Source of the DNA: a virus
Virus genome (UHGV): UHGV-2167056
Direction: 5' to 3' (one strand)
Length of the DNA: 32,938 nucleotides
Shown here in pieces: positions 1 to 32,705 of the stretch. The notes beneath the pieces were generated by a model that saw nothing but the letters and a program-made list of their open reading frames with translations, did no database searches and was not told where the DNA came from. The position numbers were made by a program, and so were the translations under genes. The first letter of the stretch is position 1; every line of letters starts with the position of its first letter.

Positions 1-4
1 GGCT

Positions 5-30
5 TTCCTGAAAACCTCGGTTTACGGGAA
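5..30. other. hix/gix-like site-specific inversion crossover site (left)
   Basis: Plus strand reads TTCCTGAAAACC-TC-GGTTTACGGGAA, two imperfectly palindromic 12-bp half-sites around a 2-bp core. It closely resembles the Hin hixL and Gin gix sites as I recall them. Confidence 0.7.
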
Positions 31-86
31 ACGGTAAACAGGGCGGCGAATGCCCTGCCATCGGACGGCACCGCCGTTGCCGCGAA
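19..86. repeat. Inverted-repeat arm (left) of invertible segment
   Basis: About 68 bp that is roughly 94% identical to the reverse complement of 1299..1366, including a perfect 32-bp core CTGCCATCGGACGGCACCGCCGTTGCCGCGAA at 55..86. Confidence 0.8.
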
Positions 87-378
87 CAGGCTGGCAAATG
101 CCCACACAATTAATGGTGTTCCCTTTGACGGGACGCAGGACATAAACATCACTTCTGGTATAACACAGCAGGATGCGGATTCCCGATATATCCAGGATAT
201 CAGGCTGGGAGCAGAGAACAGGCAGGTAATGTACGGTGGGGCATATTACTCTGCGTACGGTAATGTTATGGCAGGCCTGCAGATTGACAGTAAAGTTGAT
301 GCTTCAAACGATTTTATAGCATTCAGACCCCTGCAAAAATTAGTCGGAGGTACATGGATTACGGTATCTCAGTTATAA
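19..378 (+). other. Silent alternative tail-fibre C-terminal cassette (Sv'-like), with no start codon of its own; would be fused to the constant fibre N-terminus after inversion
   Basis: Frame 1 is open from position 1 to the TAA at 376..378. Its translation parallels residues 178-303 of the minus-strand fibre and ends in the motif FRPLQKLVGGTWITVSQL, similar to the other fibre's C-terminus and to P2 gpH-type fibre ends. Confidence 0.6.
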
Positions 379-429
379 ATAGTCAGTAAATAATATATTT
401 TAAAACAGATTTATTTCCAGGAGGATTTT

Positions 430-951
430 ATGGAACTAAAAAATATAACCCGTTATTATCCTGAAAATATGCCATATGGTAATAATGTTCAGTATTTCCA
501 GAGTGAAGATGGTAAGGATTTCTACGAATCCCTGCCATTATTCACCAAAAAATATAAACTTTGCATAACCCCTGACAGCGGTGTTATCTGCTCAATATCA
601 CAGGATGCTTCGGCGCTGTATCCTGCGGGTTTTTCCGTTGTTGAGACAGACGAATTACCTGAAGGTACTGATATTTCAGGTAACTGGAAGTTTGATAATG
701 GTGTCATCTCACAACTCCCGGTTAACTATACCAAAAAAGCGGAAGCACTGCGCCAGTCATATCTTAATCAGGCATATGAAAAGATTAATGACTGGAGAAC
801 TGAGTTACAGCTGGGCACGATTAGTGATGAAAACAGAGCTGCGCTTACACGATGGATGAAATACATCAGTCAGGTGAAAAAAATGGAACTACCAGCGATT
901 AAAAACAAAGCTGAATTTGACGCCATTAAATGGCCGGAGAAGCCTGAATAA
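430..951 (+). CDS. Tail fibre assembly (chaperone) protein, U'-like, inside the invertible segment
   Basis: 173-aa ORF with a strong AGGAGG Shine-Dalgarno upstream; directly follows the alternative fibre cassette; Tfa-like size; AT-rich. Family assignment is by position and general resemblance. Confidence 0.6.
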   Translation: MELKNITRYYPENMPYGNNVQYFQSEDGKDFYESLPLFTKKYKLCITPDSGVICSISQDASALYPAGFSVVETDELPEGTDISGNWKFDNGVISQLPVNYTKKAEALRQSYLNQAYEKINDWRTELQLGTISDENRAALTRWMKYISQVKKMELPAIKNKAEFDAIKWPEKPE

Positions 952-985
952 CATAAAGGGTGCTTATCGCACCCTTTTCCTTTAA

Positions 986-1897
986 TCAGACGGATGAAAC
1001 TGTGCGCCAGGCATTACCGATATATATCTGCACCGGACGGTAATAAACGCCTCCGATATTATCGGCTGAACTTTTCCCGGTATCCTGCACGTTAATGCCT
1101 GAAAGCATACAACCAGAAGGTGCACCATAACTCCAGGACATTTCATTACCTCCGGGTGAATGGTAACTCTGGGCACCAAGCTGAACGTTGCTAACGTATT
1201 TGTTATCAGCAGTAGCTTCAGTCATACCGGAGGTAATGTATATGTCCTGCGTCCCGTCAAAAGGAACGCCATTAATATTTCTTGGGGTGGAGAGTTTATT
1301 CGCGGCAACGGCGGTGCCGTCCGATGGCAGAGCATTCGCCGCCTTATTCACCGTTTCCCGTAAACCGACGTTATCGATAAAAGCCCCTTTATCCGGAATG
1401 TCTGCGCCGTTCTGCTCCCTGCGCAGGTAACGGTTATCACCTTCGCTTTTGCTGTAAACATCCAGATTATTACGGGCGGTTCCCTTATTCTCCAGGTCGG
1501 CGAGATTCTGATCCTTCGCCAGGGCATTAACGTCACCGGGACCAAGACTGTTTTTTGTGGCAAGTGTCCCCAGACCAAGATAACCACGGGCCAGACGCTG
1601 GGCCTCCGCACCGGCATCAGCAATTTCTTTCAGGTTATTTTTCCGGGAAAAGGCATTCGCAGCGATAATGGCTTTAATGGACAGCGTAAGCTGGTTTAAC
1701 TGCGCCTTATCCGGCTGAATACTGGCTTCAGCCAGAATATTCAGCAGTTCGGCCTGGAGAATATTCAGCCAGTCCTGACCAATCCAGCTGATACCTTTTT
1801 GTCCGTCACCTTCGGTAAACCAGGTGGTGGTATTACTCTGCGCCGGTGCCAGCGCAGGCATATTCGCCACGCCGGAATTATTATCAACATGAAACAT
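986..1897 (-). CDS. Tail fibre protein (Mu S-like): constant N-terminal part 1367..1897 plus currently joined variable C-terminus 986..1366
   Basis: 303-aa ORF at the end of the tail operon; start overlaps the upstream gene's stop (TTAATG); the crossover site lies within the ORF at codons 173-181. Confidence 0.8.
   Translation of the reverse strand: MFHVDNNSGVANMPALAPAQSNTTTWFTEGDGQKGISWIGQDWLNILQAELLNILAEASIQPDKAQLNQLTLSIKAIIAANAFSRKNNLKEIADAGAEAQRLARGYLGLGTLATKNSLGPGDVNALAKDQNLADLENKGTARNNLDVYSKSEGDNRYLRREQNGADIPDKGAFIDNVGLRETVNKAANALPSDGTAVAANKLSTPRNINGVPFDGTQDIYITSGMTEATADNKYVSNVQLGAQSYHSPGGNEMSWSYGAPSGCMLSGINVQDTGKSSADNIGGVYYRPVQIYIGNAWRTVSSV
1299..1366. repeat. Inverted-repeat arm (right) of invertible segment
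   Basis: Reverse complement matches 19..86; it encodes the same peptide (GLRETVN.AANALPSDGTAVAAN) in both alternative fibre C-termini. Confidence 0.8.
1355..1380. other. hix/gix-like site-specific inversion crossover site (right), inside the tail-fibre ORF
   Basis: Minus strand reads TTATCGATAACG-TC-GGTTTACGGGAA. The inner half-site is identical to the inner half-site of the 5..30 site and in inverted orientation; the core dinucleotide is compatible. Confidence 0.7.
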
Positions 1898-2457
1898 TAA
1901 ATAGTCTCCTCTTCATGGCTGTTTGCATAAACGTAAATAAACGTCTGCCATGCAGGCTTATAACGGTTCAGAATACATTCCAGCGCACCGCCTTCATAAA
2001 TACGCAGCGGCGTGAGAATATCATCCAGCACATTCATATTCCGGTAGCCGGTTTCACTGTTAATCGTGACAATACTGACCCACTGCGAATCCGGTGAGGG
2101 CTGAATGTCAATCTGATAACCAAACTCCGCCGCAAACCGGATATAAAATTCACGGTTCAGCGAGGGCTTCATCCGGTATTTATTGCCGGCATAACGCTGT
2201 CGCTCCGTGAGGGTGGCTCCGGCCATATCACACTCGGGAAGCCCGAGATAACGCTCCCAGTCTTCCAGCAGCAGGCGCGACGTGTCAGGGAAACGCTCGG
2301 CAAGCAGCTGTTTACCCGTCCAGGATACACGCGCTGTCGAATGACTGAGGCCCAGACATAATGATGCCAGTACGGATGACGGACGCTTGTCCCATGCCAG
2401 CCCGTCAGGCAGTAACTGCAACAGGGCGCGCTGATGTGGGGTCAGGGTTACAGCCAT
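1897..2457 (-). CDS. Tail/baseplate protein, Mu gp48-like (DUF2313/YmfQ-like)
   Basis: 186-aa ORF at the position of Mu R between baseplate J and the tail fibre; translationally coupled. Confidence 0.6.
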   Translation of the reverse strand: MAVTLTPHQRALLQLLPDGLAWDKRPSSVLASLCLGLSHSTARVSWTGKQLLAERFPDTSRLLLEDWERYLGLPECDMAGATLTERQRYAGNKYRMKPSLNREFYIRFAAEFGYQIDIQPSPDSQWVSIVTINSETGYRNMNVLDDILTPLRIYEGGALECILNRYKPAWQTFIYVYANSHEEETI

Positions 2458-30617: not shown

Positions 30618-32705
30618 TCAGGCCAGCGGATCACTTTCTTTTAATTTCGCTTCGAGCAGTTGCAATCCCCGCTGGAAATTACGCTCGTATTCTTCATCAG
30701 GTTCATCGTCAGCGACCGGTTGCTGAACGGTCACCGTATTACCCACAGGGCGGTATATGTTTTCCAGCCAGGGCTCCTGCGGCTTGTGCTCCAGCACGTT
30801 GACAACCTCATCCTCGGCATCACGGATTTTTTCCTCTGCGCGTTTACGCATGCCTTTAAGGCGCTGCTGCTGTTTGTAGTATTCCGCGCTGACAGGGAAG
30901 GCTTCGCGTTTATTGCCGTCCCATACCGCCTCGCAAATCACGCTGCCATCCGGGCGGCGCACGGTAATTCGTTCGGCATCATGAATGTCATAGCTGATAA
31001 GTACCTTACGGCCATGCTCGTCACGCAGCTCGGGCGCGTAGTAAATATTATTCAGCCAGCGTATTTCACAGCGTCTTACAGGGCGCTCCACCATCGGCCG
31101 GAACATATCCCGCAGTTCAACATCGGACAGCCATTCAATTTCCGTGTCCTCTTCCGCCAGGCGTTTTTTTCTGAACTCCGCCGGGCTGTAATGTTTACCG
31201 TTCGGCTTCATGGGTAATTCATCGTGCGGCCGGTTGTTGTACCACTCAACACCGTCACGAATGGCATCAATCAGTTCAGACCAGGACGGTAAATCACGCA
31301 TCGCTGACTGCTGCCGGGCGTTCAGCCGTTTGCCCTGTTGCAGGGCACTGAATGCCGAGCGTAAATCGCGGTTGGTTTTACGTAACGTCTCGCGATCTGC
31401 TCCTTTCCCGAAATAGGTGCGGTATTTACGGGCTATGCGCATCGGTAATGTGCGGTTAAGCCGTTCGATAATGCCCCGTCCCTGCGGATTACCGGCAATC
31501 CCTGTCGGGTGATTAATCCCCAGTCGTGGCAGTATCCCCACAATCTCCTTATCCAGGACGTCGGCGGTTTCCCCGGAGCCATTATCCGAGTAATACAGAA
31601 ACGGTTTGCCATGATGGCGAATACCGTGCTGTATGGCACCGGCTACGGCGAAAACATTTTCAGCCAGGTCAAGGCTCCAGCCCACCACAAAGCGCGTGCC
31701 ACCGTCGATAACAAAGGTCACTTCCGGTGCGAATGGCCGCCCGTGAACCGGGTGCGCGCATTTCAGCTTCATGCCGTGACCGTCACCAATCCAGACATAA
31801 TTCACCGGCATTCTGGACCAGTCGCGGCGCGTGAATCCCTCAAGCTGACGGTATTCACTGCCAGTTACCCGGCCTTTTTGTTTCACCACTTCCGGCAGTT
31901 TCTTCATTGCGCGGCGAATGGTGTCATAAGAGGGCATGATATCGAGCATATAAGGCTCATCAGCGTGCCGGTGCTGCCATTCAGCAACAAAATCCTCGTA
32001 AGCCTCGGTCATTGGTCGGCCGTTTGACTGGCGATGCTGCGCCAGAAATTCGGGCAGCCAGTTAATATCTTCGGCTTTTATTTCCTGGCGTTTACCCGGT
32101 GCCAGTAAAAGCAGGCGTTCAGCGGCGTTCTGTGCCTTGTTAAAGGCCGCAATCCAGCGTTTCAGCGTGATTTCACTCAACGCACGGCTGTTTCCCTTTT
32201 TGGCGTTCGCCGTCTCAACCATTGCCACAATGCGCTCGTCCAGTTGCGAACGTGCCAGGTTGTCAACGATAAACCGGATAGCCTTCGCACAGCTGAAACC
32301 AGGTTGTTGCGCGACTTTCAGAACTTCGCTGACGATCGCGATTCGTGCATCAGCCACCTGGCGCTGGTTTTCAGTCAGGGCATTGAGGCGTTCGACCATC
32401 AGTTGTGGTGATCCGCGATATGCCTCCACCGCATCAACCACGGCAGACGAGCGTCTGGCCTTTGTCACCACCGGAGCCGGTGATTCATCGGCTTTTTGCG
32501 TCATCAGTTGCAGGGCATAACGTTCGCGTAATGCCTGCTGTGTCACTTCAGGTAAACAGTCAATGCTGTATTCAAAACCTTTAGCGCCTTTCTTGCGGCG
32601 TCTGCTGGTTTCGCTGGTTGCATACTTCCTGATTGAATAGCGAACGCCTTGCTCCGTTCCCGGCATCCCCGGTAATCCAACCAGTTCTTTGACTGAAGCA
32701 AACAT
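30618..32705 (-). CDS. A: DDE transposase MuA-like
   Basis: 695-aa ORF; N-terminus (VKELVGLPGMPGTEQGV) resembles the MuA enhancer-binding domain; immediately downstream of ner. Confidence 0.9.
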   Translation of the reverse strand: MFASVKELVGLPGMPGTEQGVRYSIRKYATSETSRRRKKGAKGFEYSIDCLPEVTQQALRERYALQLMTQKADESPAPVVTKARRSSAVVDAVEAYRGSPQLMVERLNALTENQRQVADARIAIVSEVLKVAQQPGFSCAKAIRFIVDNLARSQLDERIVAMVETANAKKGNSRALSEITLKRWIAAFNKAQNAAERLLLLAPGKRQEIKAEDINWLPEFLAQHRQSNGRPMTEAYEDFVAEWQHRHADEPYMLDIMPSYDTIRRAMKKLPEVVKQKGRVTGSEYRQLEGFTRRDWSRMPVNYVWIGDGHGMKLKCAHPVHGRPFAPEVTFVIDGGTRFVVGWSLDLAENVFAVAGAIQHGIRHHGKPFLYYSDNGSGETADVLDKEIVGILPRLGINHPTGIAGNPQGRGIIERLNRTLPMRIARKYRTYFGKGADRETLRKTNRDLRSAFSALQQGKRLNARQQSAMRDLPSWSELIDAIRDGVEWYNNRPHDELPMKPNGKHYSPAEFRKKRLAEEDTEIEWLSDVELRDMFRPMVERPVRRCEIRWLNNIYYAPELRDEHGRKVLISYDIHDAERITVRRPDGSVICEAVWDGNKREAFPVSAEYYKQQQRLKGMRKRAEEKIRDAEDEVVNVLEHKPQEPWLENIYRPVGNTVTVQQPVADDEPDEEYERNFQRGLQLLEAKLKESDPLA

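Follow-up and report, generated by a model that had tools for sequence, protein, structure and literature searches.

The fiber locus

The window (by which we mean the entire stretch of DNA that was analyzed, 32,938 nucleotides of the virus genome UHGV-2167056) comes from a Mu-like prophage of E. coli that belongs to the Sp18 family. Both the window and its syntenic relatives encode a Mu-type tail and baseplate, with matches to the Pfam families DNA_circ_N, Phage_Mu_Gp45, GP46, Baseplate_J, and Phage_Mu_Gp48, and the window is 83% identical to O157:H7 Z869 over 4.3 kb. Where a MuA-type transposase would sit, there is an open reading frame of 695 amino acids (30618-32705), which is a putative transposase by its position and size only.

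Near the left end of the window, a baseplate gene similar to Mu gp48 (1897-2457) precedes the tail fiber gene, which lies on the minus strand (986-1897) and encodes 303 amino acids. Neither Pfam nor NCBIfam assigns the fiber to a family. The fiber's residues 1-172 (1381-1897, minus strand) share homology with Mu S in its constant part, and they lie outside the segment that we believe to be invertible. As found by BLAST, the N-terminal part of the fiber is 47% identical to Mu S over 198 amino acids (the homologous span is residues 1-191 of Mu S), and a sequence search against PDB matched it to 5yvq (E = 9.5e-49). Residues 182-303 form the variable tip that is expressed in the current orientation (986-1354, minus strand). 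Within this tip, residues 228-302 are homologous to residues 434-503 of the tip of Mu S. On the plus strand at 31-378 is a silent alternative tip, which is a cassette of 115 amino acids that resembles S'v and does not have its own start codon. The last ~65 amino acids of the silent tip are also homologous to the tip of Mu S.

Between the two tips is a tail fiber assembly (chaperone) gene (430-951, plus strand), which has the same orientation as the silent tip. It matches Caudo_TAP in Pfam (E = 1.1e-20) and the chain of PDB 5yvq_B that corresponds to Mu U (E = 1.6e-15), and it is 30-34% identical to Mu U and U'. It is the only Caudo_TAP gene, and it lies behind the silent tip; the strict pairing of Mu (S with U and S' with U') fails here. 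An O157 relative has this single-chaperone layout as well. The chaperone gene and the expressed fiber's stop codon are just 34 bp apart, and within this gap is a hairpin terminator (955-977) between the two convergent genes. The hairpin's stem has nine pairs (AAAGGGTGC...GCACCCTTT), and, as read from the sequence, it is flanked by T-rich tails on both strands. On the plus strand of 1-430, we found no sigma-70-like promoter that could serve the chaperone gene in the window's orientation, and a scan upstream of the chaperone gene in loci that cannot invert (see below) was uninformative about a promoter.

The chaperone gene is a mosaic of two types of alleles, with a junction at around 545-589. 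An exact 90-mer across this junction had no match in collections of genomes, metagenomes, or viral contigs. The window's set of cassettes (the tip of the 303-residue fiber, this silent tip, and the chimeric chaperone) was found in one complete genome and in four short contigs.

Crossover sites and inverted repeats

An initial annotation of this DNA had proposed that two 26-bp sites of the hix/gix type, in inverted orientation and with a TC core, flank the variable region. Comparison to the authentic gix of Mu (TTATCCAAAACCTCGGTTTACAGGAA, from AF083977) bears this out. The left site, which is proximal to the invertase gene of relatives, is at 5-30 and reads TTCCTGAAAACC TC GGTTTACGGGAA, with the core at 17-18. 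The right site, which is within the fiber gene, is at 1355-1380 with its core at 1367-1368, and its reverse complement reads TTATCGATAACG TC GGTTTACGGGAA. The two sites are in inverted orientation, have imperfect 12-bp half-sites, and share the TC core. Since they deviate from Mu gix at 4-5 positions, we matched them with a Hamming scan; no stretch of the window matches Mu gix with 3 or fewer mismatches. Across both strands of the window, these are the top two matches to gix, with 22/26 identical positions for the right site (the best in the window) and 21/26 for the left site, and the next-best 26-mer has 17/26. The left site is identical in all of the relatives that have an invertase gene. 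An exact 31-mer of the left site is absent from all of the GTDB species representatives. The right site encodes residues 173-181 of the fiber (FIDNVGLRE), which is where gix lies in Mu S (FIQNLGLQE).

The sites overlap a longer pair of inverted repeats. The main repeat pairs 10-86 with 1299-1375 (77 nt, 92% complementary), and a second block pairs 109-164 with 1221-1276 (56 nt, 88% complementary). The second block encodes the conserved start that is common to both tips, "INGVPFDGTQDI..ITSG". The runs of perfect repeat are at 17-35 (19 bp), 42-53 (12 bp), 55-86 (32 bp), and 124-144 (21 bp). The annotation's perfect 32-bp core is exactly the run at 55-86, and its estimate that the repeats extend about 68 bp inward is correct if counting starts at the core.

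What would an inversion do to the fiber? When we inverted 17-1368 in silico, we obtained an open reading frame for a fiber of 296 amino acids, whose residues from 182 onwards are supplied by 31-378. The expectation that the right site is inside the fiber gene, and that inversion replaces residues 182-303 with the sequence encoded at 31-378, thus holds, and the fusion is in frame. The predicted protein of 296 amino acids is already in NCBI, verbatim, as WP_032188097.1.

The invertase in relatives

The window itself does not encode a serine recombinase anywhere (by tblastn). As had been pointed out, it begins just 4 bp outside of the left site, and the invertase gene was expected to adjoin that site. 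This was the case in all of the relatives with a visible left flank: in six genomes, the left site is identical and the gene for a homologue of Gin begins 65 bp to its left, and the same arrangement, again at 65 bp, was found in 19 of the 19 contigs from metagenomes or IMG/VR that share this left site and whose left flank can be seen. (Two contigs give only a partial match to the invertase.) The relatives' invertase has 190 amino acids with the Pfam domains Resolvase (E = 1.6e-51) and HTH_7 (E = 4.9e-15). It is 70% identical to Gin (136/193) and it matches the structures of Gin in PDB (3uj3 and 4m6f, E about 1e-88).

One of the six genomes, CP091391.1, has the window's chimeric chaperone and 303-residue fiber along with the invertase. 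Its invertase gene contains two Fis-like 15-mers (G, an AT-rich stretch, and C), centered at around +101 and +147/149, which are motif matches only; they are at the same positions as those in Mu gin. Inversion may depend on Fis and on an enhancer in the 5' part of the invertase gene.

Could the window be a frozen relic, with its sites and cassettes intact, its adjacent invertase gene lost or inactivated, and no invertase from elsewhere acting on it? If so, the orientation would be fixed and the silent tip would go unused. The nearest relatives of the 303-residue fiber are in loci that are frozen because the invertase, the left site, and the silent tip have been deleted. Such losses are common among its closest relatives (including all 10 of the places displayed), and both the window's lack of an invertase and the partial matches in two contigs would fit with this explanation. 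However, positions 1-545 of the window are identical in NCCP13905, which has the invertase, and so does the sole complete genome with the same combination of cassettes. The invertase's presence in every contig that shares the left site and whose flank can be seen also argues against a relic. Furthermore, an invertase need not be adjacent: Pin-type invertases work in trans on the segments of other prophages, and such cross-acting enzymes are common in E. coli (PMC12529663). We consider it quite unlikely that the window's segment is frozen.

Natural inversion

Relatives with identical sites exist in both orientations in nature, and this is true even of clonal prophages. In E. coli FORC_043 and FORC_069, the same prophage lies at the same insertion site with identical flanks, and the 1,280-bp segments are reverse complements except for one indel of 1 nt. 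The breakpoints are inside TCGGTTTACGGGAAACGGT, which is the 19-bp run around the core (17-35). More broadly, the two orientations were represented by 20 and 11 complete genomes and by 12 and 7 contigs from metagenomes or viral collections. Three genomes (AST46, DLI.5a, and TOE17) each contain copies in both orientations.

A second kind of rearrangement is seen when NCCP13905 is compared to FORC_043. The flanks are identical, and only the inner part is inverted (corresponding to 141-1211 of the window). These breakpoints are in an identical stretch of 21-23 bp within the second repeat block, without a gix-like dyad. There does not seem to be a second internal site behind these breakpoints: the best dyad in 95-140 scores 9.2, and the real sites reach 17.8 and 19.2. 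The arrangement in NCCP13905 could be an artifact of polishing the assembly of a culture with mixed orientations. Otherwise, the inner variant would be a second route, independent of the sites, that reshuffles the stem and the tip. The stem region (31-108) is found in several combinations with the cores of the tips.

These observations bear on whether the inversions in relatives might be due to homologous recombination by RecA across the inverted repeats of ~160 bp, with no site-specific exchange at the 26-bp sites. RecA could account for the inner inversion, whose breakpoints are away from any gix-like dyad, and for the varied combinations of stem and tip. But the breakpoints that distinguish FORC_043 from FORC_069 are within 19 bp that hold the TC core, and 19 bp is too short for efficient exchange by RecA. 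Also, a homologue of Gin adjoins the site in all of the relatives, and the two sites are the window's best matches to gix. We therefore view RecA as a very improbable cause of these inversions.

We also considered stand-alone contigs of ~1.2 kb as potential proof of mixed orientation. We rejected this for contigs from Logan, because the perfect 32-bp repeat is by itself enough to break an assembly with k = 31. In draft genomes from NCBI, similar contigs are only suggestive of mixed orientation.

How the switch would work

Overall, we estimate a probability of roughly 88% that positions 17-1368 are an invertible host-range segment, which is a compact homologue of the G segment of Mu, in a prophage of the Sp18 family. 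A Gin-type serine invertase would cut each of the two 26-bp sites at its central dinucleotide (TC/GA), and the ends would be rejoined after the segment rotates by 180 degrees. The invertase could be encoded just to the left of the window, as in the relatives, or a related enzyme from another prophage could act in trans. The 5' part of the fiber gene (from 1897 to 1381, minus strand) would remain in place while the 3' part is exchanged. In the present orientation, the late operon would express the 303-residue fiber, with its tip encoded from 1354 to 986. In the inverted state, it would express the 296-residue fiber, with its tip encoded by 31-378, and then the chaperone (430-951) on the same transcript. 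The silent tip is just 47% identical to the expressed tip, so the two tips presumably bind different receptors. We infer that the switch is active in the window's own host.

It is extremely unlikely that the switch mainly serves the lysogen, with one orientation yielding a piece of the fiber that shields receptors from other phages: StfE2 of e14 is a reported precedent for this (PMC12529663), and the expressed orientation has no co-transcribed chaperone, but the fiber gene is the last in a complete operon for a Mu-type baseplate and tail, which relies on late transcription, and packaging into particles is documented for the related prophage Sp18 (PMC2669165).

One chaperone for two tips

If the segment is a host-range switch, then its single chaperone gene might make it asymmetric. 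In one state, the fiber would be made together with a co-transcribed chaperone, while in the window's state, a fiber with a tip from the same chaperone-dependent family would be made without a chaperone on the late transcript. The switch would then not be a simple choice between equivalent host ranges. We are doubtful about this and would give it low odds. If the chaperone is truly absent in the window's state, inversion would be an on/off switch, or a quality switch, for the assembly of the fiber. Alternatively, under such asymmetry, the tip might need no chaperone for its folding, or it might borrow one from a resident prophage. A switch with two tips and one chaperone gene bears on the rules for Tfa-dependent folding that were derived from Mu S and U.

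Beyond annotation, the significance of this locus is small. The genes here make up a working host-range switch of the Gin type, although RefSeq describes them with no more than the names "recombinase family protein," "phage tail protein (partial)," and "tail fiber assembly protein." These switch genes are present in about 4% of complete genomes of E. coli, and draft assemblies are prone to break at the switch.

Comparison to known systems

This switch is of a well-known kind, and it has already been remarked on for Sp18: a report from 2009 mentions an invertible host-specificity region that is distinct from that of Mu (PMC2669165). Sp18 and its relatives share the window's gene order (baseplate, fiber, single chaperone, partial tail cassette, recombinase, and DUF6645), and they are 70-83% identical to the window in this region at the nucleotide level. 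They differ in having other alleles of the tips and another allele of the invertase (about 75% nucleotide identity).

The initial annotation likened the segment to the G segment of Mu. This is correct in that the constant N-terminal part of the fiber lies outside the segment, the site is within the fiber gene at FIxNxGLxETVN, and the exchange of tips preserves the reading frame. In Mu, as in the window's relatives, the invertase gene adjoins the distal site, its transcription leads away from that site, and com and mom lie beyond; unlike in Mu, the relatives have a gene for a 684-amino-acid SASA/DUF6645 protein between the invertase and com/mom. The likeness fails in that the window's segment is not a simple miniature of S-U / S'-U', because it has a single tail fiber assembly gene, whereas Mu has two (U and U'). 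The window's segment is also shorter (1.35 kb vs. 3.06 kb in Mu, by the coordinates of the boundaries there), and so is the fiber (303 or 296 amino acids vs. 504), because the central shaft of Mu S, of ~240 amino acids, is missing. The homology between the arms is more extensive than in Mu (~160 bp vs. 34 bp; PMC4406740).

Inversion also exchanges the C-termini of tail fibers in e14 and P1 (PMC12529663). The P/PinE system of e14, the C/Cin system of P1, and the H/Hin system of Salmonella are all like the window's in that a serine invertase flips the DNA between inverted sites of 26 bp. Unlike the window, e14 and P1 have one chaperone for each tip, and Hin flips a promoter instead of the end of a coding sequence.

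Crossover sites and genes of the switch

The initial annotation had proposed a Gin/Hin-type invertible tail-fibre switch at 1-1380, with two sites that resemble gix (the crossover site of phage Mu's invertase, Gin) and inverted repeats. A gix scan and a repeat search bore out every particular. We took the reference gix, TTATCCAAAACCTCGGTTTACAGGAA, from the Mu genome (AF083977), where it is present at both boundaries of the G segment. When both strands of the entire window were scanned by Hamming distance, the left site (5-30, TTCCTGAAAACC-TC-GGTTTACGGGAA) matched gix at 21 of the 26 positions and the right site (1355-1380, reverse complement, TTATCGATAACG-TC-GGTTTACGGGAA) at 22, and the best other position matched at 17. 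Immediately inward of the site, ACGGTAAACAGGGC is common to the window and Mu. Both sites sit at the outer ends of the main inverted-repeat arms (10-86 and 1299-1375; 77 nt, 92%). The search also found a second inverted-repeat pair (109-164 and 1221-1276; 56 nt, 88%), and the two pairs together include perfect runs of 19, 12, 32, and 21 bp.

ORF calling gave a 303-aa tail fibre (986-1897, minus strand), next to a baseplate gene similar to Mu gp48 (1897-2457, minus strand; Pfam Phage_Mu_Gp48). The plus strand has a silent tip, which is an open frame without its own start codon (31-378), and a 173-aa tail-fibre-assembly (chaperone) gene (430-951; Caudo_TAP). A 9-pair hairpin (955-977) lies between the convergent chaperone and fibre genes. 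The switch lies towards one end of the window and a 695-aa ORF (30618-32705), MuA-like in its position and size only, towards the other; the whole resembles the inside of a Mu-like prophage. Records of two Stx-converting phages (LC727881.1 and LC727895.1) contain an inserted Mu-like region with an 85% match to 931-2000.

Residues 1-198 of the fibre are 47% identical to residues 1-191 of the Mu tail fibre S (PDB 5yvq_A, E = 9.5e-49), and its final ~75 residues align with the tip of S (434-503). Because the N-terminus and the tip align to the two ends of S, the 303-aa fibre is S without the central shaft. The right site codes for residues 173-181 (FIDNVGLRE), which are homologous to the gix-encoded FIQNLGLQE in S. 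The silent frame shares 47% identity with residues 182-303 of the fibre and likewise terminates in a Mu-S-type tip. The chaperone is 30-34% identical to the Mu chaperones U and U', and it also matches PDB 5yvq_B. When we inverted 17..1368 in silico, the constant part of the fibre (the N-terminus outside the invertible segment) was fused in frame to 31-378, which gave a 296-aa fibre, and the chaperone gene came next on the fibre's strand. The predicted fusion is an exact NCBI entry (WP_032188097.1 / KDY67625.1).

The invertase in relatives

The 32.9-kb window contains no serine recombinase gene. An invertase had been expected within about 1 kb to the left, and in every relative where this could be checked, it was there. 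In several related loci (L001, L002, and L015-L017), a 190-aa "recombinase family protein" begins 65 bp left of an identical left site and, in these E. coli genomes, is transcribed away from it. This protein has Resolvase and HTH_7 domains, matches Gin crystal structures (E about 1e-88), and is identical to Gin at 136/193 positions. Its gene contains two Fis-like motifs, by motif match only, at the same positions as in Mu gin. One genome, CP091391.1, has the same chimeric chaperone and the same 303-aa fibre as the window, together with the invertase. The prophage family is found in about 230 of 5,426 complete E. coli genomes, and a related invertase in about as many.

Searching metagenome and IMG/VR contigs for exact copies of the left site yielded 20 further loci. 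The invertase match starts at or near -65 in 19/19 of the contigs with a visible left flank. The 20th contig (OKQJ01000823.1), which is unrelated to the window, begins 6 bp outside the left site, and the window begins 4 bp outside. Also, several draft assemblies contain the segment as a contig of its own, ~1.2 kb long, which fits, without proving, an assembly graph that branches at the repeats. The switch seems to be a point where assemblies break.

Left of the invertase, the relatives have a SASA/DUF6645 gene, and then DUF1378, DUF826, com, and mom, on the late-gene strand. In E. coli NCCP13905 (L001, 3227-5281), the product of the first of these (684 aa) has SASA (sialate-O-acetylesterase-like) and DUF6645 domains; it could be an enzyme that modifies receptors or is associated with the tail.

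Natural inversion and recombination

E. coli FORC_043 and FORC_069 have the same prophage inside the same fimbrial usher gene. Outside the left and right breakpoints their sequences are identical, and the intervening 1,280 bp are exact reverse complements save one G-run indel. The breakpoints lie within TCGGTTTACGGGAAACGGT, a 19-bp run that holds the core, and both sites in both strains are identical to the window's. The indel, the sole difference within the segment, is G5 in the silent cassette of FORC_043 (L016, about 8240) and G6 in FORC_069. Either the silent copy carries a frameshift or the homopolymer was misread in sequencing.

Among complete E. coli genomes that match over at least 80% of window 1-2000, 20 are in the window's orientation and 11 are inverted. 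AST46, DLI.5a, and TOE17 each have prophage copies in both orientations. Among the 20 contigs, the silent-tip cassette adjoins the invertase in 12 and the other tip does in 7. This prophage region is matched at 2-6 places in JE86-ST02/ST05, AST46, DLI.5a, and TOE17, and the differing chromosomal positions suggest that it transposed recently.

Between the clonal prophages of NCCP 13905 and FORC_043 (L001 vs. L016), only the inner part is inverted (141-1211 in window coordinates), with 0 mismatches over 6 kb of left flank and 6.6 kb of right flank. These breakpoints lie in GTTCCCTTTGACGGGACGCAGGA, an identical stretch of 21-23 bp that contains no gix-like dyad. Across loci, the stem region (31-108) is paired with tip cores in several combinations. 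Homologous exchange or conversion may now and then occur between the arms and account for the inner inversion, or this inversion may be an artefact of consensus polishing from cultures of mixed orientation.

Two parent types meet within the chaperone gene, at about 545-589: window 1-545 matches the NCCP13905 type, which bears the invertase, without a difference, and from about 589 on there is likewise no difference from the JE86-ST02 type, at whose loci the invertase is absent. The chaperone gene is a recombinant and the window a mosaic. Only one complete genome (CP091391.1) and four ~1.2-kb contigs have the exact chimeric protein. In most relatives that encode the exact 303-aa fibre (among L003-L014), a deletion takes out the left site, the silent tip, and the greater part of the invertase gene. 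This deletion also substitutes the 5' end and upstream region of the chaperone gene, whose ORF is intact and convergent with the fibre.

Comparison with known switches

The Mu G mechanism is the best-supported reading of the switch, and the initial interpretation is supported. A Gin-type invertase would bring the two sites together and make staggered cuts at the TC/GA core, with rotation and religation to follow. The exchange would swap the fibre from residue 182 on and thereby alter receptor specificity. We infer that inversion depends on Fis and an enhancer. Enzymes of the Pin type, encoded by other prophages of E. coli, work in trans on foreign segments (PMC12529663), so a lack of an invertase in cis need not freeze the switch.

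In systematic surveys, tail-fibre and tail-fibre-assembly genes are among the commonest targets of programmed inversion, and one survey confirmed a Mu-S-like case by long reads (PMC9881135). The window is a fresh allele combination of a kind of switch that was already known.

Unlike Mu, the switch has a single chaperone gene. With the segment oriented as in the window, a terminator and then the antisense of the chaperone gene come after the expressed fibre, and a promoter scan found no promoter-like site for independent expression of the chaperone. The single-chaperone layout is also found in an O157:H7 relative and in many frozen loci (relatives without the invertase, left site, and silent tip), where the convergent chaperone gene is intact. 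Fibre assembly in the chaperone-less orientation is the sole non-textbook point. The segment is 1.35 kb instead of Mu's 3 kb and the fibre is short relative to Mu's, while the homology of the arms reaches about 160 bp, beyond that in Mu, because the first ~45 residues are the same in both tips.
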